Assembly: GCA_036725605.1 (NCBI GenBank)
Contig: DAIMDW010000021.1
Coordinates: 28,044 to 92,043, forward strand
Source of the DNA: a bacterium
Lineage (GTDB): Bacteria; Lernaellota; Lernaellaia; Lernaellales; Lernaellaceae
Reading direction: 5' to 3'
DNA: 64,000 bases
A program made the position numbers and the translations under genes. Of the stretch, positions 24,449 to 51,371 are shown piece by piece. Numbering within the stretch: position 1 is the first letter of the stretch; every line of letters begins with the position of its first letter. Below the pieces are notes generated by a model, which saw nothing but the letters and a program-made list of their open reading frames with translations, was not told the origin of the DNA and did not search any database.

Positions 24449-24554
24449 GTACTTCTCCGGCCTCTCGTTTTTCAGGTGTGCATGAAGGCGGGATTTGCGC
24501 AGGAAGTCGAGGAAAAAGTGGCCAAAGAATTCTTTTACCCGGCGCGAGAAATCC

Positions 24555-24584
24555 CTTGATCTTCCCGCCAACCGAAGCGATGTG
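24555..24584 (+). promoter_or_regulatory. CTTGAY-N13-GAAGC promoter motif (unit A, copy 1)
   Basis: CTTGAT CTTCCCGCCAACC GAAGC GATGTG; homologs at 25800, 50059-50089 and 51086-51115. Confidence 0.55.
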
Positions 24585-24621
24585 TTGCTTCGTGAAATGC
24601 CGATTTGAAAGGAGGATATGA

Positions 24622-24831
24622 ATGGCGCGCTACATCCTGACCAACTTGAACACCGGAGCGATCCTCGGCCAAAAGCTCGATTCTGGAGGCATGCGCCTCT
24701 TCGTGAGCATCGCCGAGGCATACGAGACGCTGGCCCGGATGGAGGCAGCGGACGGCGAAAAAGTCGATGAGCCGGGCCGAACTTTCAATTCCTGGACTCT
24801 GTGTGAAGTCAATCCGGTCGAAAGGCCGTAA
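24622..24831 (+). CDS. Small hypothetical protein (homolog of 50839-51048)
   Basis: GGAGG SD; MARYILTNL.TGAILGQ shared with unit B. Confidence 0.8.
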   Translation: MARYILTNLNTGAILGQKLDSGGMRLFVSIAEAYETLARMEAADGEKVDEPGRTFNSWTLCEVNPVERP

Positions 24832-24846
24832 CCGAAGGGAGTGCCC

Positions 24847-25053
24847 ATGAAAAAATGCGATGTCCAAATCGGCAAGACATACACCGCGAAGGTCAGCGGT
24901 TTCGTCGTGCCGGTGCGTATCGTGAGCGAGTACCCCCATGGCGGCTGGATCGGAATCAACATCCTGACCCGCCGCGAGGTGCGCATCAAGACCGCCGCGC
25001 GTCTGCGGCGCGAAATCGACCCCCACATAACCAAACCCCAAACCAAAGCGTAG
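24847..25053 (+). CDS. Small beta-rich (SH3-like) hypothetical protein
   Basis: MKK.DVQIG.TY.AKVSG..VPVRI...GGW.G.N..T.REVRIKTA.RLR; absent from unit B. Confidence 0.7.
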   Translation: MKKCDVQIGKTYTAKVSGFVVPVRIVSEYPHGGWIGINILTRREVRIKTAARLRREIDPHITKPQTKA

Positions 25054-25065
25054 GAGGAGAATACC

Positions 25066-25485
25066 ATGACCACCAAGACCATCACGATCAAAGAGGCCGC
25101 CGAGAAGTACCTGACCCATCTGGGGGAACTCGGCAAGAACGAGCGGACCGTCGAGACATACGGCCGCCACCTGGACCTGGCCATCGCACACTTCGGTGAA
25201 TCCAAAGACATCGCCAAGATCCTGCCAGTCCACGTTTCCGCCTTCTTCAAGAGCGACGCGGTCAACAAGCTGATCCGCGAACCTAGGAAGGAGGGGGAGC
25301 CGCCTCGGGAACGCCCCCGCAGTCCTCACACGGTGGCTCAAACGAAAAGAGTTCTGCGCCAGATGCTTGTGTTCTGTAAGGACCAGGGATGGACGGACAA
25401 GGTGCCGCTGCCCAAGTCCGAGGCCGAGAAGGTCAAAGAAAAGACCGATCCTGATCATCCTGCTGAAGCCGGCCGGGAGGAATGA
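25066..25485 (+). CDS. Stand-alone phage-integrase N-terminal SAM-like (core-binding) domain protein
   Basis: AAEKYL.HL.ELGKNERTV.TYGRHL parallels the Xer N-terminus; no catalytic domain; homolog 50410-50820. Confidence 0.7.
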   Translation: MTTKTITIKEAAEKYLTHLGELGKNERTVETYGRHLDLAIAHFGESKDIAKILPVHVSAFFKSDAVNKLIREPRKEGEPPRERPRSPHTVAQTKRVLRQMLVFCKDQGWTDKVPLPKSEAEKVKEKTDPDHPAEAGREE

Positions 25486-25488
25486 CCA

Positions 25489-25710
25489 ATGGGCGACAAG
25501 GTCAAAATCCCCGCCAACGTCCTCGAAGGCATAAAGGCGGTCCGGATATCCGGTCGTACGAACATGCTGGCGCGTGATGTTGTCGCCGCCATCGCCCTGG
25601 AACTCGGATACGTGGACGCGGCTTTCTGGCTGGATGACAAGGCCAATCACAAAACCTACGCCACCGGCATTTTCAACGGCTTCGCCGAGGAGGATTCTCC
25701 CACTCCGTAA
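25489..25710 (+). CDS. DUF5049-like small protein
   Basis: VLEGI.AVR.SGRTNML; homolog 50179-50406. Confidence 0.7.
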   Translation: MGDKVKIPANVLEGIKAVRISGRTNMLARDVVAAIALELGYVDAAFWLDDKANHKTYATGIFNGFAEEDSPTP

Positions 25711-25739
25711 ACTCCCGCCACAGCACGATCCCGCCTCTT

Positions 25740-25763
25740 GCGCCCTTTGCGGGGCGCTTTTCT
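25740..25763 (+). terminator. Rho-independent terminator
   Basis: GCGCCC-TTTGC-GGGGCGC then TTTTCTT; same hairpin in unit B at about 50131-50149 (-). Confidence 0.65.
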
Positions 25764-25866
25764 TCGGGCGGAAGAATTTCGCATAACTACTTGTTTCGCC
25801 TTGACTTTCACATGCGCCGAAGCCCTCATGCGGTCCATGAAAACGAGGACCACAAACCACAGGGAG

Positions 25867-26061
25867 ATGAACATGACGGAGTTTTACCAGACGCGCATGG
25901 GGCGCACGTTCTATGACCACACCCTGCCGACCATCGCAAAGGAACTGGGTCGGCTCAACGGGCTGCTGGAACGAATCGCCACGGCAATGGAAAAGCAGAA
26001 CCCCGGCCAGAGCGAAGGCCAGGACCAGAGCAACCAGGAGGTCAACGATGGCAAAGCCTAG
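25867..26061 (+). CDS. Small coiled-coil hypothetical protein
   Basis: EFYQT.MGRTFYDHTLPTIA.EL.RLN; homolog 49516-49686. Confidence 0.75.
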   Translation: MNMTEFYQTRMGRTFYDHTLPTIAKELGRLNGLLERIATAMEKQNPGQSEGQDQSNQEVNDGKA

Positions 26062-26263
26062 ATTGCGACGCGGAATGATCATGCGGTACGTGGGCGACGA
26101 CCACGCTTTCATGAAGGGACTCAAAGTCAAACTGATCGCCCCGATTCGCGGGGGCTGGTGGGATGTCGCACCCTGGATCGAAAAGGACGAACGCTTTTCC
26201 TGGGTCACCAGCGACGCCCGCCGCAAGGATCTGGTCCCGCTGGACGAGGAGGGAAAATCATGA
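26048..26263 (+). CDS. Small hypothetical protein
   Basis: GLKVKLIAPI...WWDVAPWIE..RFSWVTSDARR; homolog 49308-49535. Confidence 0.75.
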   Translation: MAKPRLRRGMIMRYVGDDHAFMKGLKVKLIAPIRGGWWDVAPWIEKDERFSWVTSDARRKDLVPLDEEGKS

Positions 26264-26553
26264 AACTCGAAATCGCCATCGACGTGCTCCAGTCCATGAT
26301 CGAACGCGCCCAGGGGAATCTGATCGCCATTCCGGAAGAGGAAGAGGTTGAAGCCCTGCAACGCGCAATCGACTGCCTGACCACCGCCGTCATCAAGCGG
26401 GAGGCTGAAATCAACCGGGCCGTCCACATGATCCGCGAGATCAGCGGGTGGCCTGACAAGGACGTTTCGGAAGTATGGATTTTCCTTCGTGACAAGATTC
26501 GGTTCAGCGAGGACGAGAAACTGGAAATCGAGAGCCGCCTGGGAATCAGGTAG
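26260..26553 (+). CDS. Helical hypothetical protein, distant paralog of the next gene
   Basis: EAL..AI.....A...RE.EI..AV..I....W....D.I.F..D.K.EI..RLG shared with 26563. Confidence 0.7.
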   Translation: MKLEIAIDVLQSMIERAQGNLIAIPEEEEVEALQRAIDCLTTAVIKREAEINRAVHMIREISGWPDKDVSEVWIFLRDKIRFSEDEKLEIESRLGIR

Positions 26554-26562
26554 GGGGTGACC

Positions 26563-26844
26563 ATGAATTTCAAGCAAGCGATCAAGGTGCTTCGCGCCCG
26601 CAAGCGACGCACAACCGGCAACGAGGCCGAGGCCCTGGCCATCGCCATCGAGCAGATGACCAAGGCCGACCGCAACCGGGAGGCCGAGATCGCCAAGGCG
26701 GTGGAGCTTATCCACGACGCGGTGTTCGACTCTGAGGGCAATCTTCACGAAAGCGCCTGGAGCTACATCAAGGATCGGATCGACTTCCCGCCCGACGACA
26801 AGGCCGAAATCATCCGGCGGCTCGGTCTGGACGAAAAGGAGTAG
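26563..26844 (+). CDS. Helical hypothetical protein
   Basis: Homolog of 49009-49305 (HESAWSY.KDRIDFP..DKAEIIRRLGL). Confidence 0.8.
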   Translation: MNFKQAIKVLRARKRRTTGNEAEALAIAIEQMTKADRNREAEIAKAVELIHDAVFDSEGNLHESAWSYIKDRIDFPPDDKAEIIRRLGLDEKE

Positions 26845-26847
26845 CCG

Positions 26848-27732
26848 GTGAATCTGCAAACCGCCATCGACCAATTCCTCACCCGGCTCGAAGCCGAGGG
26901 TAAAAGCTCGCACACCATCAGCTGCTATCAGCGGGACCTGCGATCGCTTGCGGCATTCGCGGGCGACATCGCCGTCGCCGAACTCACCGAGGACCTGCTG
27001 GCCCGGTTTCTTCTGTCCGACTCCGTAACGAAAACGCACACGGGCGCCCGTCGCGGCCAAGCCAGCATCGGGCGCATAAAGGCCTGCCTGAAATCGTTTG
27101 GGCGCTTTGTGGCCAACGTGGGCGCGACGGGGCGCGACCCCGCCGCATGGATCAAAGTGAAACGCCACCAGCGCGAGACGCCCAGCTATCTGACGCCCCA
27201 GGAGGTCAAGGTCCTGGTGAAAGCCGTGGCGTCCCGCAAGGGCGCGGCAGCCGAACGCGATCTGGTCATGCTGAAGATTCTGCTCGGCACCGGCATCCGG
27301 CTTGCGGAATTGGTCGGGCTGGACATCGCCGATATCAGGCTCGACGACAAGAAGCTGAGGCTTCGCCACACCAAGGGCGGGCATGCCCAGGAACGATTCA
27401 TCGCCACCGACCTGCGCCGCGCCCTGCGAAAATACATCCGCGAACGCAAGAAGGTCGCCGCCGACTCCGAAGCCCTGTTCCTTTCCAACCGCAACACCCG
27501 CATCAGCACCCGCCAGGTGCAGGCCCGCATGAAGCTCTGGCTCGCCTGGGCCGGGCTCGACGGAAAGATCACCGTCCACGGTTTGCGCCACACCTTCGCC
27601 ACGACCCTTTATGGCCGCACCCGCAACCTGCTGCTGGTATCCAAAGCCCTCGGCCACGCCCAGGTCGCCACCACGCAAATCTACGCCCACATCGCCGACG
27701 ACGAACTCGAACAGGCACTCGAAGCCCTTTAG
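26848..27732 (+). CDS. Tyrosine recombinase (XerC/D-like integrase), unit A
   Basis: Catalytic R (GIRLAEL), K (TKGG), HGLRH, LGH, Y (TQIYAH). Confidence 0.93.
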   Translation: MNLQTAIDQFLTRLEAEGKSSHTISCYQRDLRSLAAFAGDIAVAELTEDLLARFLLSDSVTKTHTGARRGQASIGRIKACLKSFGRFVANVGATGRDPAAWIKVKRHQRETPSYLTPQEVKVLVKAVASRKGAAAERDLVMLKILLGTGIRLAELVGLDIADIRLDDKKLRLRHTKGGHAQERFIATDLRRALRKYIRERKKVAADSEALFLSNRNTRISTRQVQARMKLWLAWAGLDGKITVHGLRHTFATTLYGRTRNLLLVSKALGHAQVATTQIYAHIADDELEQALEAL

Positions 27733-27862
27733 AACGACCAGCAGCGCCGCGATTCTTTTATGCGCATAAGGCGTCTTATGAGACGTTCCGTGGAAAATCG
27801 AGACGCGCAACGTCGCGGAACTTCGAGACCCGCCGACCGGACCGCCAACGACTTCTGCGAAC

Positions 27863-28498
27863 TTATTTTTGCGTTTTGCCGTCATCCGTCTCTTTTTCCT
27901 TGGCATCTTTCACGCGGGCCAGCAGAGCCACCGCCCATTCAGCGGGCGTGGTGGTCGGCCCGGAACCGCTGTCGCGCTGGGCGCGGGTGGTTTTCAGGCA
28001 CTCCAGCTGCTTGCGAAAGAGCACGTCGTAATTGCCGACTGCGGCATCGGCATTGCCGAGAACCGCGCAGTGCCACTTGGCGTAATAAAAAGCCGCCATC
28101 GATGCCTGGGCGAGGTCGGTTGATTCGTTGAGATCGAAGTCCCGGTGGATCGCGGCGAGCAGTTCCTCGAAGATCGCCTTCTCCTCGTCGGTCAGCATCT
28201 TTTTCACGTAAGCGCCGTGCTTGAGACCGTTGAGGTTGCCGCGCATCTTTTCCGGCGGCGCACCACCGTGGTTTTTCGGATTGGCACCATGGAAGCGGCA
28301 GACCTTGTAGCCTTCCACGACCGGGCTCTTGCACCGCTGGCCGGTGCTTTTCGATTTCGCCTTGCAGCGAAGGACGCGCCGTCCCAGCACAACAACGAAA
28401 TCATCGTCGTCGCCAACCGGAAGTGAGGCGGCGTTTTGTTCGGCGACATTACCGGGGTTGGATTTCGCTTTTTCGTCGGTTAATTCAGCCATTTTCAC
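27863..28498 (-). CDS. HGGxSTG-domain protein (TerS-like), copy 2
   Basis: RCKAKSKSTGQRCK.P...G..VCRFHG, GNLNGLKHGAY. Confidence 0.78.
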   Translation of the reverse strand: MKMAELTDEKAKSNPGNVAEQNAASLPVGDDDDFVVVLGRRVLRCKAKSKSTGQRCKSPVVEGYKVCRFHGANPKNHGGAPPEKMRGNLNGLKHGAYVKKMLTDEEKAIFEELLAAIHRDFDLNESTDLAQASMAAFYYAKWHCAVLGNADAAVGNYDVLFRKQLECLKTTRAQRDSGSGPTTTPAEWAVALLARVKDAKEKETDDGKTQK

Positions 28499-28619
28499 TC
28501 CGAGTCACGAGGGATTGACCCTCCGATATCGGCCATCTCGCGCCAGGCACTTTCCCCATCAGTAGAAACGATGAACGCGAACCGGCCAATATCAGTGGGT
28601 GGCAAAAACACGTAGACAC

Positions 28620-28865
28620 TTATTTCTTCCCCGCTTTTTGCAAGATGAAACGCACCGCGCCTCTGGTGAGCAGATAGGTGTCCGCGATCTCGGCGATGGA
28701 CTTGCCGTCGTTGAACATCCGAACGACTTCCAGGTTGCGCTTGATCCGTGCGGCGTACTTCCGGGAAGGGATGTAGAGATACCCACCGGAAAAATGGTTC
28801 TGGATTTGCTCGACCAGTTCCGGGGGAAGGATCCCCTCGGCATTGATGTACCGATTGAAGGGCAT
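28620..28865 (-). CDS. Mor/CD3324-like transcription activator
   Basis: Y.NA..ILP.EL...IQ..F.GGYLYIP, RN......G.S..EIA..Y.L....VR.I. Confidence 0.8.
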   Translation of the reverse strand: MPFNRYINAEGILPPELVEQIQNHFSGGYLYIPSRKYAARIKRNLEVVRMFNDGKSIAEIADTYLLTRGAVRFILQKAGKK

Positions 28866-29185
28866 CAGATCCTCACCTCACGCCGGGGGATGGGTTGGGA
28901 CGGCGGCACGATTATTCGCTCGGCGGGCAGATTCTCCTCGAGGTCCTTGATGAATTCCCGGAGGTCGGATTCACCCATCGAATCGTAGTGGGCGCACCGG
29001 ACCTTGCGGCGCGACAGGACGGTATGGAGGGAGTAGGTTTTTTCATTGCCCGCTGAGGTGACCCATTGTCCGGCGGCGCATCGAACCCGACGTTCGCGGG
29101 TTCCATTGCGGGGGCAGGTATGGGTTGAAACCTTGCAGTGGAGACAATTGGCGCAATAGATGTGTGTGGATTTGGTTCTGCTCAT
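28865..29185 (-). CDS. Cys-rich (putative Zn-binding) hypothetical protein
   Basis: YCANCLHCK...VRCAAGQW...C.HYDSMG. Confidence 0.7.
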   Translation of the reverse strand: MSRTKSTHIYCANCLHCKVSTHTCPRNGTRERRVRCAAGQWVTSAGNEKTYSLHTVLSRRKVRCAHYDSMGESDLREFIKDLEENLPAERIIVPPSQPIPRREVRI

Positions 29186-29388
29186 GATTTTCTTTCCTTG
29201 GTTTGGGGTTTGCGAACCGGGGATGACCCGGACGTTTTTCTGTTGAGGGCATAGGGAACCCGGTCGTGAAATTCAGCGCGTTTTCCGGGATTCCAGTGTT
29301 GGACGGGCCTGTAGTATCCGCAGATGCGGGAATAAACTTCAGTGCGAGCCTTGCATTTACCCATTGGCACAGGCCTCCGGGTGAGCAT
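29182..29388 (-). CDS. Stand-alone NrdD C-terminal-like mini protein
   Basis: TEVYSRICGYYRPVQHWNPGKRAEFHDR matches the class III RNR C-terminal peptide. Confidence 0.75.
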   Translation of the reverse strand: MLTRRPVPMGKCKARTEVYSRICGYYRPVQHWNPGKRAEFHDRVPYALNRKTSGSSPVRKPQTKERKS

Positions 29389-29725
29389 CGGCGGGCGGCA
29401 CGAATTCGATGTCGCTGAAAACGGGGATGCCGAGTGAGCGTGCTACTTCGATTTCGCGGGCCGTGCCTTGAGAACCGGCCCAGCCATCGATGAGAACAAC
29501 AAGATCGGAACGGCGCACCATTTCGAGACCGCCGTTGAGAAAGACTTCCTCGGAGGCTGCGCCTGACATGAACGCGGAATTGAGATGCGGGCAGATCACG
29601 GCGTATCCCAGGGACCAGAGGCGTGCGGCCACTTCACGGGCAGCAGCGATGTTTTGGGCGACGTCGTTGTGGGTGCGGCCACGGTACGGACCGGCGGTAT
29701 ATGCTACTTTCATTTTCTCCTCCAT
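29357..29725 (-). CDS. DUF4406/DUF1937 (nucleoside 2-deoxyribosyltransferase-like fold) protein
   Basis: YTAGPYRG, G..VICPHLN, W..SQG...E...A. Confidence 0.78.
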   Translation of the reverse strand: MEEKMKVAYTAGPYRGRTHNDVAQNIAAAREVAARLWSLGYAVICPHLNSAFMSGAASEEVFLNGGLEMVRRSDLVVLIDGWAGSQGTAREIEVARSLGIPVFSDIEFVPPADAHPEACANG

Positions 29726-30492
29726 CAGAACAGCCGGGCCTGTTGCGGCGGCTGCGTGGGTTTGGGTTGAGGGGGTTGGGTTTCGGGTTTCGGTGGTGAC
29801 GTGGGAGCCGGACTTGGGGTGTAAAAATCCTCCGGAATATCCCGCTGCGGTCCCACGTATGTGATTTCGCTCCCGGGAAATGCGTGCATCACCATCGAAA
29901 GTTTGCGCAGGTCCTCGGCGGAAATTTCGATGCGATCCTGGCCAGCCCTGTCGGTGTAATCGGGAACGAGCGTGAAATCCCCGGGCTTGGATTTGACGTG
30001 GACCTCGACGCCCAGGGCCTTGAACGACTCGACGTCCTTGGGCGTGAGTTCGCGGGAGACGAGGGTCGCGGCGCAGTCTTCAGCGGATTCATGGTCGAAC
30101 CCGCCGTCAAATTCCATGATCGCCGCGCGTTCGTCCCAAGACTCGACGATACCGATGGCATGGTCATGGGTGGGCGCGACATATAATTTCTCGTCCAGGG
30201 TGTCCAGCGCCGTGAGCAGAGCCTTGTCGCCGAGGTGCTCCAGTGCCCAGGTGTTTATCGCGTTGAACCGCTGGCGCAGAGTTTTCCAGGTTTGGGCTGC
30301 CAGCTTACCGGCTTCGTGCGCTTTTTTGGCTCGCTCCATCCGGCGACGAAGCCAGGCGTAGTACGGGGCATCGAGGCGGCGATAAACGGTATTGCCGATC
30401 ATCACGTCCTGGGGATGGTCGGGGGCATTTTCCAGTGTGATGTGCCTCAGGTCCGTGGCGACGCGCAGGGCGACCTTGTTTTTTTCACTCAT
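29725..30492 (-). CDS. Hypothetical protein
   Basis: Coupled to neighbours; contains WDERAAIMEFDGG, a motif often seen next to primases in such elements. Confidence 0.65.
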   Translation of the reverse strand: MSEKNKVALRVATDLRHITLENAPDHPQDVMIGNTVYRRLDAPYYAWLRRRMERAKKAHEAGKLAAQTWKTLRQRFNAINTWALEHLGDKALLTALDTLDEKLYVAPTHDHAIGIVESWDERAAIMEFDGGFDHESAEDCAATLVSRELTPKDVESFKALGVEVHVKSKPGDFTLVPDYTDRAGQDRIEISAEDLRKLSMVMHAFPGSEITYVGPQRDIPEDFYTPSPAPTSPPKPETQPPQPKPTQPPQQARLF

Positions 30493-36095: not shown

Positions 36096-36102
36096 CTGTC
36101 AT

Positions 36103-36207
36103 GCCTTTCCTTTATGCTTCGATTCGTTCGGTTCCATTCCGTTTTGATCCGATCCACTCATCTTCATTCGTTTTTCAATTCCACCGGCCGAGGCCGACTC
36201 GATTCGA
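36103..36207 (-). repeat. Pentamer array 3 (21 in-phase 5-mers, NN+GRA, more degenerate)
   Basis: ...gtGGA tcGGA tcAAA acGGA atGGA acCGA acGAA tcGAA gcATA aaGGA. Confidence 0.7.
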
Positions 36208-36225
36208 CCACGGACGCTGAAATCG

Positions 36226-36310: not shown

Positions 36311-36320
36311 ATCACTGCGG

Positions 36321-36480: not shown

Positions 36481-36483
36481 TAG

Positions 36484-39388: not shown

Positions 39389-39402
39389 GGCTGTCTCCTT
39401 CG

Positions 39403-41149: not shown

Positions 41150-41229
41150 GAATAAGCGCAGGACCGGCCTCAGACACTACCACCGACTCTGCCTGGACTC
41201 GGTTCCGAGCAGCGGTCGGGGGACAAGGT

Positions 41230-42971: not shown

Positions 42972-43238
42972 CGCATCTCCGCACATATATTCTGCACAGT
43001 AACCTATATAAAGTTATCGTGCGTGTCAAGAGTTAGTTTCAGGGGAAAGCCATGTATTTCATCATGAAGGCGAGCATGAGCAAGCCAGGGAAAAACCACT
43101 AAACGATTTTACCATGCATCGATGTTTCTAAACGCATTTCCGATTGCGTACCCTTGGGATAGGGCTGTCGCAGAAAAGTACCATAGTTTCGCACACCCTG
43201 GAACTTGCAAATTTCAGTCGTCGCCAATTACCTTACCG

Positions 43239-43306
43239 ATGGAACAGTTGCGGGGTGGAAACTTCCATTATTTACCCTTGCCCTCCTCATGGGGGAGCAA
43301 TATTCT
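43239..43306 (+). promoter_or_regulatory. Operator motif copy 2 plus promoter TTGCCC-N17-TATTCT
   Basis: ATGGAA CAGTTGCGGGGTGGAAAC TTCCAT; the -35/-10 pair is identical to the one near 55799. Confidence 0.65.
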
Positions 43307-43332
43307 GGATCAAGCTGGAGAAAGGCGAGATC

Positions 43333-43467
43333 ATGAGAAAAGTGATTGCACTGATTCATCGGATGGCAGCGGAACGATTTTTCGGAAGCGTTACGCTCCG
43401 TTTCGAGAACGGCCGAATCCGGCACATAAAGATCGAGCAGTCTTTACAGACAAGCGACTTTTCATGA
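43333..43467 (+). CDS. YezD/DUF2292-like small protein, copy 1
   Basis: FFGSVTLRFENGRIRHIKIEQS. Confidence 0.65.
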   Translation: MRKVIALIHRMAAERFFGSVTLRFENGRIRHIKIEQSLQTSDFS

Positions 43468-43521
43468 CGGCAGACAAACGACAACAAGAAAAAAGGAACC
43501 ACAGTTAACCCGTAATTTCGG

Positions 43522-43676
43522 GTGACAATTCGTTTTCTTTTGGGGTTGTCGAAAAAATCGAGCCCCGGCGAAGCGGAAGGCAAAGCCTTCACATGGCCCT
43601 ACGAGGTAATCGGAAGAACCGATCCCGCGTTGGACCGAAGGCGAGGTCCTTCCGTTTCGGCGGGGCTTTTCTTTTT
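43522..43676 (+). promoter_or_regulatory. Terminator/antiterminator leader ahead of primase B
   Basis: GGGG-TTG-TCGA-AAAAA-TCGA-G-CCCC hairpin overlaps the 5' arm of a 20-bp stem ending CGGGGCT-TTTCTTTT. Confidence 0.6.
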
Positions 43677-43688
43677 GAGGGGGTCGCA

Positions 43689-46600
43689 GTGCACGAAAAG
43701 GAAAAATGCGTTCAACTTCTGCTTAAGGATTTTCTCACAAGGCGGGACGTTGTCGCGGCGCGGCAGCAGTGGCAGGACCGCCGGAGTAGAGAGTGGATTT
43801 CCAGGCCTCGCCCGGTTAAAGCCGGCCCACAATTGGAGAGTTTGGTCGCCTTCCATGTCTATGGACCGGAGGGACGCAAGGCACCCCCATTAAATTACAT
43901 CAATAACAAAACCGGGGCTCTCGTTGCCGATGGCCGTGGCTTTGACCGCTTGGGTGCTTATGCCGTCACACCGGACAATAAATGCGGGTGGCTTTGTCTT
44001 GATTTTGATGGTCCGGGCCATCCGCTGCCTTTAGCTGACCCGACGGCCACGATGCTTGCGTGCGTGGAACGCTGCCGCGCTTTGGGCGTCCCCAGCCACA
44101 TCGAGATGTCCGGCAGCGGCCATGGTTGGCATCTCTGGGTGTTTTTCGAAAACCCGGTGCCGGCCTCTGATGCGCGGTTGCTCGGGCATCGTGTCGCACC
44201 CACGGATCATCTGCTCGTCACCGGCGAGCCCGCCGATATCCGAACAGGGCGTGGGATCGAATGCTTCCCGAAGCAGAACACGGTCAGCGACAAGAAAATC
44301 GGCGCGGGCAACATGGTCTGGCTGCCGCATTGGTTTGGAGCAATAGGCGGGGGAAATCAATTCCATCGGTTCACGGACGAAAGGATTCTCGCCCCGTATT
44401 TACCTGACGAGTTCGAACGACTACCGGTCGAGCGGCTCCAGGACATCCTCACCCAGGTGCCCGACGATATTAGGCACTTCGTGCTAAAAACGAAGGATGG
44501 ACTAAAGGCCCCGTCGGCTCCGAAAAGTAGTCCACACGCTGCGTCCACCAACTATGCGCCAAGCGACACTCAGATGATCCAGGCGGCACTCGATCACATC
44601 TCGCCCGACGTTTCCTATGACGACTGGCTTCGTATCGGCATGGCACTTCACCACTGGGACGCGCAGGCGGGGCTTTCCCTTTGGGACGCCTGGAGCGCAC
44701 TCGGCGAGAAGTATGTGGATGGCGAGCCTCCGCTCAAGTGGGACGGATTCACATCCGGCGGCGGCGTCACACTCGGCACCCTGTTCGATATGGCAAAAAA
44801 AGCGGGTTGGACCTCACCCGTTCATAAACGGGTTCCGCTGCCAAGTGACGAAGAGATCAACGATTTTATTGACGTTGACCCATCCGCATTGCTCGATGGA
44901 GCGGCTTTTAAACGAACGATCAACGCTGAAACCGCTCTTTCTGGTTCGGACGGGATCACAGTTTCAGATAGAAAGCGATTGCCGGTCATTATCGTCAATA
45001 ATCGAACCGGTCCTGCACTGATCGAGGAAGCTTGGGCGGCGATTCGTGCTTCCAATTATCCACCGCGAATATTCCAACGGAATGGCGCATTGGTCCGACT
45101 CACGATGAATACGGACCCTCCGAAAATCATCCCCATGAATTTCGTCTCCATGTATGGCCTTTTATGGCGGGTTGCCAATTGCGTCGTCGATGCCAACGAC
45201 ATGCAGAAGTCGGTCAACCCGCCCAAAGATCTGGCTAGCGACATGCTGGAGTATCCCGACCCAACGTTACCCCACCTCGATGCCGTCGTCTCCACGCCGG
45301 TCTATGATCGCGAGGGCAATCTTGTTCAAGCGCCCGGGTATCACCGAACCGCTCGGCTCTGGATGCATATCGCGCCCGGAACATTGCCATATGATGTTCC
45401 GACCAAACCATCAGACGCACAGATCGCCGAAGCCGTTGCTCTTCTCAACAACGAACTATTTGTCGATTTTCCGTTCACCTCGCAGTCCGGCCGTGCTCAT
45501 GCCGTGGCCGCTCTGTTGCAGCCTTTCATCCGGCGGATGGTCGATGGGCCGACCCCCATGTATTTGCTGGAGTCGCCGAGCCCGGGCACCGGAAAAACCC
45601 TTCTCGCGAAAGTCATCTCCAGAATTGTGCTCGGCAAGTCTGTCAACGCGGCAAGCCTCGATCTGGATGAGCAAGCTATCGCGAAAAAGATCACGGCCAT
45701 TCTTCTGGGCGCACCGCAGGTCGTCCTAATCGACAACATCAATGTTCGCACTGGTCTCAAGTCGGCCGCTCTGGCCGCCGCAATGACCGCCGAACCTTAT
45801 TCCGAACGCGTTTTATACCAACCCGGCATGACGGAGCTTCCCAACCATGCGTTGTGGCTTATCACGGCCAACAATCCGAGCATGTCCCTGGAGATTGCCC
45901 GCCGCTGTGTCAGCATACGCATCGACGCGCGACACGACCGACCTTGGCGTCTGCATGGATTCAAGCACGAGCCGCTGGATGATTGGGTGGTAGAAAACCG
46001 TGCGGCCTTGATCACGGCCATTCTCACCATCGTGCGTGGCTGGATCGTCGCGGGGCGGCCGTCGGGAAAATTGACCTTCGGTTCCTTTGATTCATGGGCC
46101 CGCATTACCGGTGGCATTCTTCAGTTCTCAGGCATTCCCGGATTTCTTTCCAACCTCGAAGACCTGTACGAAGCAGCGGACACCGAAGGTGGGGAATGGC
46201 GCGAATTCGTCGCCGCGTGGTGGAGCAAATTCGGCGGGCGGGTTGTACCTTTTGCGGAACTGTTGGACCTCGCCAATGAAAAGGGCTTGCTCCCATCCGT
46301 CGTCGGCGATCAGGGATCGCGCGCGCAAAAGACACGGCTCGGCCGCGCCCTCAGCGCCATGAGGAATAGGCAGTTTGATTCCTATCGAATTGTGCAGCGA
46401 AGAAACAGCCATACGAAGCAATCCGAATACACGCTGGAAGAGGTAAACGCCGACGACCAACGCATACCGCATGGAATGGCTCCGGTCCTGCCGCTTTTTG
46501 CGGGTGATCGTCAGCCATCGAGCGCATCATCCGCAATATCGTCCGCGAAAAATAATTCTAAAAATCAGCCAGTTGCGGATGATGCGGAAGATGCGGAAGA

Positions 46601-46802
46601 CATTTCCAATTTGCTGGATAACGAGGGCGATAAAAAAGGGATGGAGGGGGTATATGAGAACAATAGAGGGCTATCATCCGCATCAACCGCAAACGTAGAA
46701 ATTCATCAGCACAATCAGCAAGTTAGCCATGCGGAGGATGATTCGAGATTATCTCCGGCATCATCAGCGGATCTCGCCGACTTCGAACCTGAGGAGGATT
46801 AA
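43689..46802 (+). CDS. Replication protein: AEP (TOTE-type) primase + PriCT-2 + NTPase/helicase, unit B
   Basis: WLCLDFDG, GWHLWVFF, SYDDWLRIGMALH, SPSPGTGKT; collinear with primase A but lacking the wHTH/iteron insert; GTG start after GAGGGG. Confidence 0.85.
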   Translation: MHEKEKCVQLLLKDFLTRRDVVAARQQWQDRRSREWISRPRPVKAGPQLESLVAFHVYGPEGRKAPPLNYINNKTGALVADGRGFDRLGAYAVTPDNKCGWLCLDFDGPGHPLPLADPTATMLACVERCRALGVPSHIEMSGSGHGWHLWVFFENPVPASDARLLGHRVAPTDHLLVTGEPADIRTGRGIECFPKQNTVSDKKIGAGNMVWLPHWFGAIGGGNQFHRFTDERILAPYLPDEFERLPVERLQDILTQVPDDIRHFVLKTKDGLKAPSAPKSSPHAASTNYAPSDTQMIQAALDHISPDVSYDDWLRIGMALHHWDAQAGLSLWDAWSALGEKYVDGEPPLKWDGFTSGGGVTLGTLFDMAKKAGWTSPVHKRVPLPSDEEINDFIDVDPSALLDGAAFKRTINAETALSGSDGITVSDRKRLPVIIVNNRTGPALIEEAWAAIRASNYPPRIFQRNGALVRLTMNTDPPKIIPMNFVSMYGLLWRVANCVVDANDMQKSVNPPKDLASDMLEYPDPTLPHLDAVVSTPVYDREGNLVQAPGYHRTARLWMHIAPGTLPYDVPTKPSDAQIAEAVALLNNELFVDFPFTSQSGRAHAVAALLQPFIRRMVDGPTPMYLLESPSPGTGKTLLAKVISRIVLGKSVNAASLDLDEQAIAKKITAILLGAPQVVLIDNINVRTGLKSAALAAAMTAEPYSERVLYQPGMTELPNHALWLITANNPSMSLEIARRCVSIRIDARHDRPWRLHGFKHEPLDDWVVENRAALITAILTIVRGWIVAGRPSGKLTFGSFDSWARITGGILQFSGIPGFLSNLEDLYEAADTEGGEWREFVAAWWSKFGGRVVPFAELLDLANEKGLLPSVVGDQGSRAQKTRLGRALSAMRNRQFDSYRIVQRRNSHTKQSEYTLEEVNADDQRIPHGMAPVLPLFAGDRQPSSASSAISSAKNNSKNQPVADDAEDAEDISNLLDNEGDKKGMEGVYENNRGLSSASTANVEIHQHNQQVSHAEDDSRLSPASSADLADFEPEED
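46527..46781. repeat. TCCGC/GCGGA iteron-like repeats in the 3' end of primase B
   Basis: About 8 copies, e.g. GCGGATGATGCGGAAGATGCGGAAG. Confidence 0.5.
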
Positions 46803-46806
46803 AGCC

Positions 46807-47133
46807 ATGAGACAAATCAGTCTTGCCCGAGCCCTGAACATCCCGCAGCGATTTGCGGAGGAAATCTACCAGGATCTGGTCAAGGACAACAGCGGCGTCG
46901 AGCGTGAAATCTGGCGGAGCTTCTCCCGGATGAAACTTCAGCGGGAGATTTACCTGCGTCAATACTCCGGCCCACGCGGCGGATATGACAAGTGGATCGG
47001 TTTAATGCTGGAAGAAACCGTCAGGGACCTTATCGAAAAATTCATCACAGGCGAAGCGGTCCCCCGGGGTAACTGGGATCCCGACGAGTGGGAACGTCGC
47101 CTGCGGCAGGAAGCCGAATGGAGGCATTCGTGA
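46807..47133 (+). CDS. Hypothetical protein
   Basis: GAGGAGG SD; coupled to the next gene by GTGA overlap. Confidence 0.65.
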   Translation: MRQISLARALNIPQRFAEEIYQDLVKDNSGVEREIWRSFSRMKLQREIYLRQYSGPRGGYDKWIGLMLEETVRDLIEKFITGEAVPRGNWDPDEWERRLRQEAEWRHS

Positions 47134-47432
47134 TTTTGCCCTATCGCAAAGCGTCGGAAGTCTTACCGGAGGAATTGGTCGCGGAAATCCACAAATACTT
47201 TCGCGGCGGATGTCTCTATGTTGCACACCGGAAAAACGTGAACCGGATCAAGCGTGATTTGACGATCATCGCCATGCGTCGAGAAGGCCGAACCGTCACC
47301 GAAATCGCCGAATGGTTCCTGCTTTCAAGGCGTGCTGTACGTTACATCTTGCAAAAAGCCGCAGCGCGAAGCGCGGCTTCTCCGGAAAACATTGAAACCT
47401 CATCCTCCAATACCATAAGGAGTCACTCATGA
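47130..47432 (+). CDS. Mor/CD3324-like transcription activator
   Basis: Y.KASEVLPEELVAEIHKYFRGGCLYV; homolog of 28620. Confidence 0.75.
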   Translation: MILPYRKASEVLPEELVAEIHKYFRGGCLYVAHRKNVNRIKRDLTIIAMRREGRTVTEIAEWFLLSRRAVRYILQKAAARSAASPENIETSSSNTIRSHS

Positions 47433-47989
47433 ACACCAATCAGAATTTGCCCGATGATCAGGACTACGTGAATAGTTTCGGTCGCCATGTCCCGCGATGT
47501 ACCGCCCGTATGAAGAAAAACGGGCGGCGCTGCACGCTCCCGGCTGTGACGGGATATGAGGTCTGCCGGATGCACGGGGCCAATTTGAAAAACAAAGGCG
47601 GAGGGCAGCCGGGCAACCTCAACGGGATGAAGCACGGCGCCTATGTGAAGCGTCTGCTCGATGACAGAGATCGGCAATTGTTCGACGAAATGCTCGAGGC
47701 AATCCGCCGCGACTTCGAACTCAACAACTCGACAGACCAGCTTCAAGCTTCAATGGCATCGTTTTATTTCACGCGATGGATACGCGCCGTGGAGGGCAAT
47801 GCCGATGCGGCCATCGCGCATTTCGACCTTTTGATGCGCAAGCAATTCGAGTCGCTGAAAGTCATGCGGGTCCAGCGCGATTCAACCAGTGGTCCGCAGA
47901 CAACGCCAGCGGAATGGGCGGTCGCGCTTCTGGAAAGCGTGTGTGGCGGCGCGTCCGGCAAGCCGTCCAAGGACAAGCCGAGGGACTGA
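47429..47989 (+). CDS. HGGxSTG-domain protein (TerS-like), copy 3
   Basis: RCTAR..K.GRRC..PAV.G..VCRMHG, GNLNGMKHGAY. Confidence 0.78.
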   Translation: MNTNQNLPDDQDYVNSFGRHVPRCTARMKKNGRRCTLPAVTGYEVCRMHGANLKNKGGGQPGNLNGMKHGAYVKRLLDDRDRQLFDEMLEAIRRDFELNNSTDQLQASMASFYFTRWIRAVEGNADAAIAHFDLLMRKQFESLKVMRVQRDSTSGPQTTPAEWAVALLESVCGGASGKPSKDKPRD

Positions 47990-48120
47990 TGCGCCGAAAA
48001 CGCGAAAACAATCGCGTGGAAGTCGTCAGCAGCGGTCGCCGTAAGTCGGCGAAGTTGCGCGAGTCGGCCTTCGGCCAAATCGCAGATAAGACGTGTTCTG
48101 TGAGGCGCAAGCCGGGCGGC

Positions 48121-49005
48121 TCAGATGCTTTCGAGTGCGTCCTCGAGGTCATCGTCGGTGATGTGGGCATAGACCTGGGTGGTGGTGACGCGGGAGTGGC
48201 CGAGTGCTTTGGCGACCAGCAGCAGATTCTTTGTGCGGCCATAGAGCAGCGTGGCGAAGGTGTGGCGCAGTCCGTGGACGGTGATCTTGCCGTCGAGCTC
48301 GGCCCACGTGAGCCAGAGCCCCATTCGCTCCTGGACCTGGCGGGTGCTGATGCGCCGGTTGCGATTCGAGAGAAAGAGTGCGTCGGTCTCGGCCAGTATC
48401 TTACGGCGGCGCTGGATGTACTTGCGCAGGACGCCGCGAAGCTCGGTGTTCAAGAATCGCACCTGGGGCTTGCCGCCCTTGGTGCGCCTGATGCGCAGCT
48501 GCTTCTGGTCGAGGTGAACATCGCCAATGTCCAGACCGACCAGTTCCGCCAGGCGAATGCCGGTGCCGAGCAGGACGCGCAGCATGACCAAGTCACGGTC
48601 GGCGGTCTCGCCTTTGCGCGCGGCGACCGCCTTGAGGAGTGCCTTCACTTCGGCGGGCGAGAGAAAAGACGGCGCTTCCCGGTCATAGCGCTTGATCTTG
48701 ATCCATGCTGCGGGATTGCGCCCGGCTATGCCCACGTTGGCCACGTAGCACCCGAAGCTGCGCAGGCAGGCTTTGATACGTCCCAGGCTCGCTTCGCCAC
48801 GGGGGGCGCCCGTGTGCGTCGTGGTCACCGGCGTGGACAAAAGGAAACGCGCCAGCAGATCCGCGTTCAAGGTCGACGCCTCGATGTCGCCCGCGAAGGC
48901 GAGCAGCAGGCTGAGGTCGCGGCCGTAGCAGCTGAGGGTGTGCGGGCTTTTTCCCTCAGCCTCTAACTGCGTGAGAAACTGGGAAATGGCAGTGGAAAGG
49001 TTCAT
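48121..49005 (-). CDS. Tyrosine recombinase (XerC/D-like integrase), unit B
   Basis: GIRLAEL, TKGG, HGLRH, LGH, TQVYAH; collinear with 26848. Confidence 0.93.
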   Translation of the reverse strand: MNLSTAISQFLTQLEAEGKSPHTLSCYGRDLSLLLAFAGDIEASTLNADLLARFLLSTPVTTTHTGAPRGEASLGRIKACLRSFGCYVANVGIAGRNPAAWIKIKRYDREAPSFLSPAEVKALLKAVAARKGETADRDLVMLRVLLGTGIRLAELVGLDIGDVHLDQKQLRIRRTKGGKPQVRFLNTELRGVLRKYIQRRRKILAETDALFLSNRNRRISTRQVQERMGLWLTWAELDGKITVHGLRHTFATLLYGRTKNLLLVAKALGHSRVTTTQVYAHITDDDLEDALESI

Positions 49006-49008
49006 GGG

Positions 49009-49305
49009 CTACTCCTTCCCGGCCAGACCGAGCCGCCGGATGATTTCGGCCTTGTCCTCGGCGGGGAAGTCGATCCGGTCCTTGAGGTAGCTCCAGGCGC
49101 TTTCGTGAAGATTGCCGTCGGAGTCGAAGATCGCCTCGCGGATAAGCTCAACCGCCTTTTCAATCTCAGTCTCCCGGTTACAGTCGGCCCGTTCCAATTG
49201 CTCGATGGCGATGCTCAGTGCCTCGGCCTCGTCTTGGGCAAAGACGGTCTCGGCCGCCCGTTTTTGTTTCGCCTGCAGCACCTTGATGGCTTGCTTGAAG
49301 TTCAT
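49009..49305 (-). CDS. Helical hypothetical protein (homolog of 26563)
   Basis: MNFKQAIKVL...HESAWSYLKDRIDFP. Confidence 0.8.
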   Translation of the reverse strand: MNFKQAIKVLQAKQKRAAETVFAQDEAEALSIAIEQLERADCNRETEIEKAVELIREAIFDSDGNLHESAWSYLKDRIDFPAEDKAEIIRRLGLAGKE

Positions 49306-49307
49306 GG

Positions 49308-49535
49308 TCAGTCCTCCTTCTTCAATGGCACCAGGTCCTCGCGGCGGGCGTCGCTGGTGACCCAGGAGAACCGCTGGTCCTGCTCGATCCAGGGCGCGAC
49401 GTCCCACCAGCCCGTGGGGCGCTCGTTGTCGTCGAGGATCGGGGCGATCAGCTTCACTTTGAGTCCGGTCATGAAGGCGTGGTCGGTGCCCGTGTACCGG
49501 GCGATCATGCCGCGTTTAAGCCTGGGTTTCGTCAT
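49308..49535 (-). CDS. Small hypothetical protein (homolog of 26048)
   Basis: WWDVAPWIE...FSWVTSDARR. Confidence 0.75.
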   Translation of the reverse strand: MTKPRLKRGMIARYTGTDHAFMTGLKVKLIAPILDDNERPTGWWDVAPWIEQDQRFSWVTSDARREDLVPLKKED

Positions 49536-49686
49536 TGTCTTTCTCCTTGGCTTGAGTGTTCTGTTTTTCGAGAGCCGCCGCGATCCGCTCCAGCGCCGCG
49601 TTGAGCCGGGCCAGTTCTCGGGCGATGGTCGGCAAAGTGTGGTCGTAGAAGGTTCGCCCCATGGCCGTCTGAAAAAATTCAGGCAT
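49516..49686 (-). CDS. Small coiled-coil protein (homolog of 25867), not in the ORF track
   Basis: MPEFFQTAMGRTFYDHTLPTIARELARLN..., 56 aa, GGAGG SD. Confidence 0.75.
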   Translation of the reverse strand: MPEFFQTAMGRTFYDHTLPTIARELARLNAALERIAAALEKQNTQAKEKDNDETQA

Positions 49687-49701
49687 TCCGTCCTCCTTGG
49701 G

Positions 49702-50016
49702 TTACGCGGGTTTGCGGATAACCATGCCCTGGTCGTCGCACTCGACGACGCGGTAAGCCAGGCGGGTGCGGCCGCTGGCGGCGTGCTGCCACATGATGAG
49801 CCCCAGTTCATGGTCCACGATGGCTGTGCCGGGATGCCGCTCGTATTCGATGGAGTCTTCGACCTCAGCCTGGTAGTCGGCGGCGATGCCGAAAATTTCG
49901 AATTCGGCGAAGTGTCCGCACCCGATGACGTTGACATCACCCAGCGAGCGCAGCGCCTCTCCGAGCGTATTGAAGGTTTGCCTGCGGGCGGTTTGTGCGT
50001 TGTTGCTGCCTTCCAT
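49702..50016 (-). CDS. Hypothetical protein unique to unit B
   Basis: GGAGG SD then ATG 50016. Confidence 0.6.
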   Translation of the reverse strand: MEGSNNAQTARRQTFNTLGEALRSLGDVNVIGCGHFAEFEIFGIAADYQAEVEDSIEYERHPGTAIVDHELGLIMWQHAASGRTRLAYRVVECDDQGMVIRKPA

Positions 50017-50178
50017 CGTGGCCTCCTTTCGGTTTTGGTTCTTCGTGCTCATGCGACGTACAGGGGCTTCGAAGCACATTAAAGTCAAGGTAAAACAACC
50101 ACTTATGCGAAGTTTTCCGGCCCGAAGAGAAGCGCCCCGCAAAGGGCGCTGGAGGTGGGAATTGGTCTGGGGCGGGCG

Positions 50179-50406
50179 TCAGGTGGTGGGCGTTTCCTCT
50201 CGAAAGCCTCGGAAGATTCCCTCGGCGTAGGTCTTGTGGTTGGCCTTGTCGGTCAGCCAGTAGGCGGCGTCGATGTGGCCAAGCTCCAGGGCGATGGCGG
50301 CGACGACCGGGCGATCCAGCATGTTGGTCCTTCCGCTTCGGCGCACGGCCTCGATGCCCTTGAGCACCTCGGGCGGGATGGCGACTTTGGCGCTTTGGTC
50401 CGTCAT
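50179..50406 (-). CDS. DUF5049-like small protein
   Basis: VLKGIEAVRRSGRTNML. Confidence 0.72.
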   Translation of the reverse strand: MTDQSAKVAIPPEVLKGIEAVRRSGRTNMLDRPVVAAIALELGHIDAAYWLTDKANHKTYAEGIFRGFREETPTT

Positions 50407-50409
50407 GGC

Positions 50410-50820
50410 TTACTCGGCGCTTTCGGCGGGTTCGGCCTCGGCGGTTTCCTTGACCCTGGCCAGTTCCTCCTTGGGCAGCGGCACCTTGTCCGTCCATCCC
50501 TGGTCCTTGCAGTACACCAGCATTTGGCGGAACACGCGCTTGGTCTGAGCAATGGTGTGCGGGCTGCGCGGGCGCTCGGTGCGCGTTTCACCCTCTTTCT
50601 TGGGTTCGCGGATCAGCTTGTTGACCGCGTCGCTCTTGAAAAAGGCAGAGACGTGGACGGGCAGAATCTTGGCGATATCCTTGCCCTCGCCGAAGTGGGC
50701 GACGGCCAGGTCCAGGTGCCGTCCGTAGGTGATGACGGTGCGCTCGTTCTTGCCGAGTTCGGTCAGATGGGCGACGTACTTTTCGGCGGCTTCCTTGATC
50801 GTGGTGGTCTTTGTGGTCAT
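50410..50820 (-). CDS. Stand-alone integrase N-terminal SAM-like domain protein
   Basis: Close homolog of 25066. Confidence 0.72.
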   Translation of the reverse strand: MTTKTTTIKEAAEKYVAHLTELGKNERTVITYGRHLDLAVAHFGEGKDIAKILPVHVSAFFKSDAVNKLIREPKKEGETRTERPRSPHTIAQTKRVFRQMLVYCKDQGWTDKVPLPKEELARVKETAEAEPAESAE

Positions 50821-50838
50821 GAGTGGCTCCTTGTGGGT

Positions 50839-51048
50839 TTATGGTCTTTCGACCGGGTTGACTTCGCACAGGGTCCAGCCGTTGAACGACTGGCCGATCT
50901 CTTCGGGCTTCCAGTTGGCTCTCGCCTCGATCCGCGCCAGCGTTTCGTAGGCTTCGGCGATGCTGACGAAGGGGCGCATGCTCCGTTCGTTCAGCGTCTG
51001 GCCGAGGATCGCGCCGGTGTCGAGGTTGGTCAGGATGTAACGCGCCAT
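50839..51048 (-). CDS. Small hypothetical protein (homolog of 24622)
   Basis: MARYILTNL...WTLCEVNPVERP. Confidence 0.8.
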   Translation of the reverse strand: MARYILTNLDTGAILGQTLNERSMRPFVSIAEAYETLARIEARANWKPEEIGQSFNGWTLCEVNPVERP

Positions 51049-51371
51049 GTCTTTTCTCCTTTCGATTCAGCAGCTTACGACGTGTCACATCGCTTCGTGT
51101 GGCGGGCAAGTCAAGGGCTTTTTTCACCGGAAATCGAGACTCTACAGCCCGGCGGCCGGGGGCGCGGTCAAAGTAAACGGTGGAGTGGTGTAATGGTGAT
51201 GATAGTGCAGAAGGAGCCATATCATTTCCTTCGTCAGAATTGCAGCCTTCAGAATGCTGAAAAACCAGATGGAACGTATCGGCCATTTATGCAAAATGAT
51301 CCGACAAGTTAAAAATATCGCTGAAAGCTGTGTTGCAAGTATCAACAACTTGAAATTCGGAGAAGCTGACA

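Follow-up and report, generated by a model that had tools for sequence, protein, structure and literature searches.

Cryptic prophages can be kept by their bacterial hosts as defence islands, examples being the cryptic prophages of Escherichia coli and the defence hotspots of P2-like prophages. Known phage satellites share few genes with phages (PMC10085698), and in SatelliteFinder a phage-inducible chromosomal island (PICI) is a discrete 10–18 kb unit with an integrase, an AlpA-type regulator, a primase or replicase and packaging-hijack genes (PMC10085698). We compared with these systems a 64,000-nucleotide stretch of DNA from a bacterium of the Lernaellota (GenBank assembly GCA_036725605.1, contig DAIMDW010000021.1), here called the window, to which all positions refer. 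Two homologous blocks, A (24.55–33.9 kb) and B (51.12–43.7 kb, shared part), face each other in it. The region that holds them, from 18.2 to 58.8 kb, is probably an array of derivatives, at least two and probably three in number, of one family of temperate contractile-tailed phages. Head-less and rearranged, they would together form a defence island.

The mirror-image arrangement had been proposed in an original prediction, made from the sequence alone, and was borne out. Self-blastn of the window gave two inverted matches, 24549–28343 against 51121–47521 at 71–75% nucleotide identity and 30842–33699 against 46379–43846 at about 66%. A blastp comparison of all open reading frames (ORFs) recovered every gene pair named in the prediction, about ten in total, at 47–85% amino acid (aa) identity. 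Given as A/B, these are 24622/50839 (69-aa protein, 74%), 25066/50410 (139/136-aa protein with an integrase-N-terminal-like sequence, 85%), 25489/50179 (DUF5049 protein, 75%), two overlapping small ORFs (107/116 aa in A; ORFs within 25738–26263 pair with 49308–50142), 26557/49009 (95/98-aa protein, 70%, with a tandem 131-aa paralog also in A), 26848/48121 (294-aa Xer-type recombinase, 72%), 27863/47429 (HGG or 'HGGxSTG' protein, 61%), 28620/47088 (Mor-like protein, 47%) and 30485/43593 (AEP-PriCT2-AAA primase, 52% over the C-terminal ~600 aa). The protein names are backed by Pfam, PHROG and NCBIfam scans. Between A and B, dS was 0.46–2.5 and dN/dS 0.16–0.36, so the split is old and has been under purifying selection, in agreement with the earlier statement that this is not a recent duplication. 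The matching promoters and terminators also proved real: A, B and the related phages have in common a promoter-like block with a ribosome-binding site 5' of gene 1 and a terminator hairpin 3' of gene 3 (25740–25757). No sigma-70-type promoters were found in block A or block B.

Two other parts of the prediction need correction. Its count of two copies holds for A and B but overlooked a third, partial copy at 18.6–24.5 kb, where an orphan HGG gene, hgg3 (Table 1), stands beside a ligase-AAA operon of this element family. The RAMP system that it had placed in A did not materialise, as no scanned A protein had a Cas or RAMP match in Pfam, NCBIfam or PADLOC. What lies at 41.2–43.0 kb is a gene pair for proteins of 253 and 333 aa. 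The first is a weakly AbiEii-like nucleotidyltransferase (NTase; E 0.005, below the cut-off), and the second, encoded upstream of it, is a widespread protein whose homologs are annotated as winged helix-turn-helix (wHTH) or 'MarR-like'. In AbiE type IV toxin-antitoxin systems an AbiEi wHTH regulator precedes the AbiEii NTase; the pair in A showed no similarity to the clear AbiE pair of a related locus, L002.

The arrangement is physically real. Independent assemblies from ENA, JGI and Logan, reached by exact-protein look-ups, match the window at 99.3–100% identity. The strain is present in digester samples, among them JGI 3300010350, SRR5007228 and ERZ27264001. They reproduce the left edge (host, hgg3, ligase operon, gene 1), the joint between the 192-aa gene and ERCC4, and the joints linking B, R_423, TOTE, recombinase and host, each joint in 2–6 independent assemblies; the A/B joint was found in three. 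A chimeric contig, in which strain variants of one prophage had been joined in the wrong orientation, might have been suspected because the contig is likely of metagenome type and one assembly breaks within the B small genes, near 49.2–49.4 kb. Given the recurrence of these joints, and given that A and B, at 66–75% identity, are too diverged for collapse or swap, such an artefact is scarcely credible.

Relatives of the two blocks were collected with the 139-aa protein as bait, one of the shared small proteins that had been proposed for this use. Reference genomes, IMG/VR and metagenomes yielded about 30 loci, whose loci or contigs we label with L-numbers (L002, L059 and so on). Where the flanks suffice, genes 1–6 and Xer converge on opposite-strand genes for HGG, Mor, a 106-aa protein, DUF4406, a 255-aa protein, primase and RecD2. 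By a tally from the locus maps, the gene for the large terminase subunit (TerL) is adjacent to and divergent from gene 1 in 14 of about 20 distinct loci with DNA upstream of gene 1. Loci that reach far enough continue after TerL with portal, a giant MuF/minor-head fusion of ~1530 aa and two small genes. Relatives therefore exist elsewhere, contrary to what would have refuted the prediction, and the idea of a family of integrative satellites was right in that A and B are diverged members of one mobile-element family; the relatives, with TerL beside gene 1, are however not small satellites.

A TerL-profile bait extended the family to at least 98 IMG/VR contigs (TerL identity 55–97%), among them proviruses from isolate genomes (IMG/VR 637000095, 648028022 and 648028023). 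Several metagenome-assembled genomes (MAGs) also contain family members. Their invariant synteny runs RecD2…255, Mor, HGG / Xer, 139-aa homolog / TerL, portal, giant MuF, 170, 112 / D12 methyltransferase. The order of the A early operon (PDDEXK, AAA_24, DUF669, ERCC4, RecD2, primase…HGG) is canonical, and this operon usually follows DUF2924, a large serine recombinase (SerRec) and g147. In the broader relatives, with TerL ~60% identical, the genes past the methyltransferase encode a major head protein (32% identical to that of Bacillus phage G), followed by late genes comprising neck-size genes, a tail sheath (35% to Bacillus phage sheaths), a tube-size gene and a 1211-aa tape-measure-size gene. 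Because the late genes of these broader relatives continue to head, sheath, tube and tape measure, the relatives are temperate phages of the myovirus type, complete as judged by gene content. Cultured phages are only distant kin, the family TerL being at most 29% identical to theirs. An initial suspicion, that the 'full' relatives are devoid of capsid and tail genes and could be satellites themselves, was dropped because their contigs end inside the methyltransferase ORF and the broader relatives continue into virion genes. The family, found in anaerobic communities, is uncultured and undescribed in the literature searched.

The modules of the family are highly mosaic and Xer is dispensable, since junctions recur and Xer is replaced in some relatives: by the ligase operon, downstream of gene 6, in L002 and L156, and by a SerRec-g147 pair in L058, L064 and L071. 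Individual relatives carry further variations. L138 has a TOTE homolog adjoining Xer, another cargo position (3853–6357), and L092 has AAA_21 and RloB between the primase and 255-aa genes (3118–5060). After RecD2, L017 encodes a sigma-54 activator, an AAA_23 ATPase, a histidine-kinase-like ATPase and a response regulator (642–5803). In L060, a metagenome contig, the TerL gene (2–1258, 52% identity) converges on the ligase operon and Xer is an 80-aa fragment, a layout that suggests composite, oppositely oriented stacking of family members elsewhere too. Complete relatives have a tandem-double D12 adenine methyltransferase (L018, 12490–15163). In the broader relatives the methyltransferase has 800 aa (L092, 18660–21071) and a C-terminal half with a weak prohead-protease match and a coiled coil; it would be an unusual methyltransferase-protease/scaffold fusion, encoded one 120-aa gene before the major head protein gene. 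Two regions stand out in the ~1530-aa MuF protein (L003, 1966–6561; L092, 13126–17700): one is ADP-ribosyltransferase-like, with 30–33% identity to the 'minor capsid-ART fusion' proteins of mycobacteriophages, and the other, at the C-terminus, is head-morphogenesis-like. A PDB sequence search with this protein gave no match. P0252 lies 200 kb from the L003 element and was uninformative.

The window lacks the virion genes of this family. No match was found in it to the TerL, portal, MuF, 165-aa and 112-aa proteins, nor to the major head protein, sheath, tube and tape measure of the relatives. The homology of A and of B to the phages breaks off no more than a few bases from the start codon of TerL, whose place is taken by cargo genes. 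The A cargo is an operon for 190-aa, 234-aa and 1056-aa proteins, divergent from gene 1 as TerL is; by Pfam and PADLOC the 1056-aa protein combines an ATP-dependent DNA ligase and an IetA-like AAA ATPase in a single fused chain. The B cargo begins with R_423, divergent from gene 1, followed in the opposite orientation by the gene for an 856-aa protein in which a full-length AEP-TOTE domain (PF22548, E 2.5e-96) is fused to a ResIII/DEAD helicase. Membership of the TOTE systems was assigned by this Pfam match and its description; searches of the library for papers on TOTE and on HGGxSTG found none. R_423 belongs to a family of more than 1100 homologs and is a widespread defence-island protein, present without TOTE in other defence islands and, in a Geoalkalibacter genome (L158), located between Wadjet and BREX. 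Both junctions recur: the ligase operon is divergent from gene 1 also in L059 and L060 (~71–73% aa), and the gene 1 / R_423 / TOTE junction is found also in L156/L157 (78–83%). We regard the cargo genes as candidate anti-phage genes on the strength of these domain and neighbourhood similarities.

How the copies came to be joined is indicated by short remnants between them. In complete phages s46, methyltransferase, late genes, recombinase module and early operon share one reading direction, so the two methyltransferase fragments in the window (43523–43681 and 55975–56082) are deletion leftovers. One scar joins the methyltransferase 5' end to primase and the other joins it to DUF2924; the fragment at the A/B joint is matched by L003 (756–907 against 43676–43523). 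Thus the A/B joint and the joint 5' of DUF2924 are deletion scars with leader and methyltransferase fragments, not att sites. On the left, hgg3, a toxin-antitoxin pair and the ligase operon are collinear with an L002-type element and probably represent a third remnant fused to A. Two earlier interpretations of the region were given up. A supposed inversion of 37.6–56.2 kb relative to a 36.8-kb IMG/VR contig was dropped when 10 further contigs gave the A order as canonical, that contig being the rearranged one. P_365, s46 and J_107 were first taken as genes; P_365 is an antisense shadow of the tandem D12 adenine methyltransferase gene.

The island has one integration module, at its edge. The DUF2924-SerRec-g147 trio occurs once in the window and also in L017, L041–L045 and L051, and homology to phage contigs ends at the g147 stop. 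PHROG labels g147 a 'recombinase', and it is possibly a directionality factor. A search for att repeats across the island and between its borders found no convincing direct repeats at the island ends or at the ends of A and B, and no empty site was found via the host flanking proteins. Ends without repeats are expected of serine-recombinase att sites, and the absence of repeats at the ends of A and B argues against independent Xer-type units. Such units were the core of the original prediction, in which A (16 kb) and B (8 kb) were separate integrative satellites, each complete with its own Xer, that had inserted independently at one hotspot and possibly competed there. Each block does have its own Xer gene, Mor, HGG protein and primase, and relatives exist elsewhere. 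Xer and the small genes are, however, conserved internal genes of complete phages, located between HGG and TerL, and the replacement of Xer in some relatives means that it is not a defining integrase. The joints are deletion scars, no flanking repeats or att-like sites were detected, and no solitary relative with the proposed ends was found. The 16 kb and 8 kb do not stand as unit sizes either, as cargo and integration module lie outside the limits given for them. The two-unit model is thus largely contradicted, and we consider it very improbable. The description 'satellite-like' was fair as a statement of gene content, since both copies are without virion genes.

Derivation from complete phages would account for what A and B retain. 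The complete relatives are organised as DUF2924-SerRec-g147 / PDDEXK…RecD2-primase…Mor-HGG / Xer…gene 1 (opposite strand) / TerL-portal-giant MuF…methyltransferase. A retains the whole replication/recombination operon with a cluster of iterons in the primase gene, and iteron clusters occur at comparable coordinates in the primase-matched stretch of L003, L004, L009, L013 and L072. B retains an iteron-less primase (no iterons were found in the B primase gene), Mor, the HGG protein, Xer, the small genes and the single integration module. As in a cryptic prophage, the non-structural modules are collinear with those of complete phages, in the same order and at 66–95% nucleotide identity, and the virion genes are gone. 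Signs of decay are present as well, namely the orphan hgg3, the two methyltransferase fragments and the loss from B of RecD2…PDDEXK and the iterons. A appears to keep what replication needs (primase, iterons, helicase and recombination genes), and neither A nor B would be able to form particles.

Regulatory signals of the phage family are also present. The Mor-like proteins of 81–104 aa match Pfam Mor. A dyad motif lies 5' of hgg3, with a second copy at 55757–55803, and occurs also 5' of the HGG gene in L009 and 5' of s46 in L018. We infer that it may be the site of a Mor-type activator. The arrangement resembles the Mu-type middle/late regulation by Mor/C in combining a Pfam Mor protein with a dyad motif 5' of the HGG and s46/recombinase genes. 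It differs from Mu in that the island has no transposase or Mu-like replication and instead has an AEP primase with an iteron cluster and serine-recombinase integration.

We propose that phages of this family, which would integrate by the large serine recombinase, gave rise to the copies by repeated lysogeny or by recombination among related phages, and that deletions and an inversion followed. The copies may persist because their cassettes defend the host. The cassettes follow the gene-1/TerL divergent control region, which formerly served as the promoter region of the packaging genes, and might be switched on when a related phage supplies a Mor-type activator; that position, together with the Mor homolog and the dyad motifs, makes cross-activation by an infecting relative plausible. 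A, and B with the recombinase module, could perhaps also be replicated or packaged by full-length relatives.

Several observations weigh against this account or limit it. All retained ORFs are intact, and the head-less junctions have been kept across 17–30% protein divergence, which fits a maintained, possibly mobile lineage better than simple decay. B genes 1–3 (50014–51116) are 93.7–95.6% identical in nucleotides to the full phage contigs L081 and L020, and one of the full phage contigs at this level, 94–96%, shares its metagenome of origin with a 99.4% copy of the window; such ~95% identity to a co-occurring full phage suggests ongoing exchange. Tail and capsid genes were seen only in the broader relatives; in the closest clade the contigs break off within the methyltransferase gene. 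Finally, the HGG protein may be a small terminase (TerS), as indicated by weak PHROG matches (E ~1e-4 to 1e-5), 33% identity to one annotated TerS and 'YjcR' labels. Its AlphaFold model (pLDDT 76) had no significant Foldseek match, and PDB sequence searches with the HGG, 253-, 333- and 255-aa proteins were without match.

Some of these observations would be explained if A and B were functional phage-derived satellites, helper-dependent parasites of their full-length relatives, with A carrying the ligase cassette and B, an element of ~15.7 kb, carrying R_423/TOTE and the serine-recombinase module. A helper's Mor-type activator would induce them, their own primase would replicate them, and the small-terminase-like HGG protein would direct the helper TerL to package them. 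The gene set is indeed PICI-like (recombinase, primase, activator, TerS-like protein and defence cargo) and under the purifying selection noted above; head-less junctions recur in diverged lineages, MAG CAXXWT01 holds one head-less and two full elements, and the full relative with ~95% identical genes 1–3 comes from the same metagenome, 3300010350. Yet A has no integrase module of its own and B no iteron origin, the orphan HGG gene and methyltransferase fragments are present, and the TerS identity of the HGG protein is weak. Moreover, A and B share nearly all their genes with the phages, whereas known satellites share few (PMC10085698). We consider functional satellites possible, though on balance unlikely.

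A bolder variant, which we advance as a rather doubtful conjecture, is a maintained lineage of 'self-derived satellites', descended from a myovirus-type temperate phage, in which the packaging/head operon has been swapped at the TerL start codon for interchangeable defence cassettes (ligase-AAA, R_423, AEP-TOTE helicase) and which full-length relatives induce and mobilise. Such elements would keep the primase, Mor and the TerS-like protein, their cassettes would fire at the late activator of a related phage, and the stacked inverted copies would be interacting parasites of one helper. Weighing all of this, we prefer the array of head-less prophage derivatives, and the features assigned to it are listed in Table 1.

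Table 1. Features of the composite island, with positions in the 64,000-nucleotide window
Feature	Position	Strand	Basis or remark
Whole composite island	18150..58760	.	Flank Pfam; phage-contig homology ends ~58750; gene tables of independent assemblies
Dyad motif GGGGTGG..N16..CTTCCACC, candidate activator/late-promoter box, 5' of orphan HGG gene	18522..18568	+	
Orphan HGG protein, hgg3	18627..19217	+	63–64% aa to A and B copies
HigB-like (Gp49) toxin and helix-turn-helix (HTH) antitoxin pair	19324..20048	+	L075 gene table with Pfam; Pfam HTH_3
Cargo operon at TerL-portal-MuF place of A: 190-aa, 234-aa, 1056-aa	19996..24448	-	Pfam, PADLOC
A promoter block, genes 1–6, Xer-type tyrosine recombinase	24549..27732	+	Xer at 26848–27732
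A complete early operon	27863..42986	-	Pfam; identical order in L040–L045, L050, L051, L145, L159
Ten CCATTACTTT iterons within A primase gene, candidate replication origin	32256..32468	.	10 matches against 2.6 expected
A/B joint: s46-like ORF (J_107) and methyltransferase 5'-end fragment, abuts B primase	43144..43681	+	
B truncated early operon: primase 1037 aa, 108 aa, Mor-like, HGG protein	43689..47989	+	
B Xer recombinase, genes 6–1, promoter block	48121..51121	-	
Cargo at TerL…112 place of B: R_423 (+), AEP-TOTE with ResIII/DEAD helicase (-)	51372..55415	.	Pfam, PADLOC
Dyad motif, s46 ORF, methyltransferase 5'-end remnant: late-gene deletion scar	55757..56082	+	Remnant 55975–56082
Integration module: DUF2924, large serine recombinase (502 aa), g147	56388..58760	+	Pfam, PHROG

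Read leftwards, the A early operon encodes wHTH (333 aa), NTase-like (253 aa), PDDEXK, AAA_24, DUF669, ERCC4, 192-aa and 172-aa proteins and then RecD2, the AEP-PriCT2-AAA primase, 255-aa, DUF4406, 106-aa, Mor and HGG proteins. Between RecD2 and the gene that follows it in this operon, a 390-nt gap contains 5–7 copies of a ~30-nt T/C-rich repeat (TTCC…TCCATTC; 36107–36440), possibly a regulatory or second origin-like region. Among A genes 1–6, a 70-aa ORF between genes 1 and 2 (24841–25053, +) is A-only with respect to B and recurs in L058, L068, L069 and L156. Its product matches, at 63% identity, the N-terminal end of the hypothetical protein Rctr197k_150 encoded by the 197-kb Virus Rctr197k, from a denitrifying anaerobic methane oxidation (DAMO) enrichment; this was the single short match in plasmid and phage DNA searches.

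On its left the island adjoins a B12/iron-type TonB-ABC uptake operon of the host and on its right MORN/HD genes. A cobalamin riboswitch (Rfam RF00174, 113 bits) lies at 8126–8317 (+), and the operon 3' of it (8.4–17.3 kb) encodes two unknown proteins, a TonB-dependent receptor and an ABC uptake system, host context that probably serves B12 uptake. Within it, 8531–9217 and 10137–10826 form a 690-nt direct repeat with 76% identity, and the 558-aa and 391-aa ORFs 3' of the riboswitch have in common a 270-aa domain (69% aa) without a Pfam match. Just 5' of the island, GAC/GAT-rich imperfect repeats (17400–17928) encode Asp-rich tracts in a 263-aa protein. The right flank (59106–64000) is defence-like, with an HD protein, a 399-aa protein and a PafC-type HTH protein, and beyond the window the same contig (L073) encodes an SMC/AAA_15 ATPase, a metallophosphatase and a SIR2 protein.

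The island offers a sequence-resolved example of a prophage becoming a defence island or satellite, in which the virion operon is swapped at a fixed boundary, recurrently in several lineages. It points to candidate defence genes (the ligase-IetA-like operon, R_423 and the AEP-TOTE helicase) and to a candidate trigger, Mor-type cross-activation. Helper-dependent mobilisation, if true, would run counter to the idea that a satellite has few genes in common with its helper.

Among known systems, the marks of a complete temperate tailed phage (TerL, portal, major capsid, tail) are missing from the window. Capsid, portal, terminase and head-tail connector genes, as carried by capsid-forming PICIs (cfPICIs), were likewise not found in it, and the relatives with TerL and portal differ from cfPICIs in belonging to a family with sheath, tube and tape measure genes. 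None of the P4-like satellite genes psu, delta, sid, epsilon and alpha primase-helicase appeared in the Pfam, PHROG and NCBIfam scans, and the island primase is of the AEP-PriCT2-AAA type, not the P4 alpha type. No dif-like or att repeats flank the blocks as they would in integrative mobile elements exploiting Xer (IMEX) or other Xer-integrating islands; in relatives Xer is internal, between gene 6 and the HGG gene, and the A and B Xer proteins score far below the NCBIfam XerC and XerD cut-offs. Likeness to a TOTE conflict system, as described for Pfam PF22548, resides in the AEP-TOTE domain of the 856-aa cargo protein.

PICIs are closer. Like them, the island has an integrase, a primase/replicase, a small-terminase-like gene and defence cargo, lacks capsid and tail genes, is built on a 15–25 kb scale and has related full phages in the same community. 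Of the PICI marks, recombinase, primase and a weakly TerS-like gene are present, and AlpA and capsid-morphogenesis/redirecting genes had no match among the island proteins in Pfam, PHROG or NCBIfam. Unlike a PICI, the island has no discrete att-bounded units, and nearly every A/B gene has a 70–95% identical homolog in the putative helper family. Cryptic-prophage defence islands are similar in being phage-derived, in having lost virion and lysis genes while keeping regulatory, replication and recombination genes, and in carrying candidate anti-phage systems with further defence genes adjoining. In contrast to them, the packaging/head operon is here cleanly replaced, with the TerL start codon as the boundary, the same junctions are found again in diverged lineages, and the copies are stacked and partly inverted. 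Cryptic prophages, defence islands and satellites are known categories, and what is new here is the clean, recurrent swap of a TerL-led operon for interchangeable cassettes.

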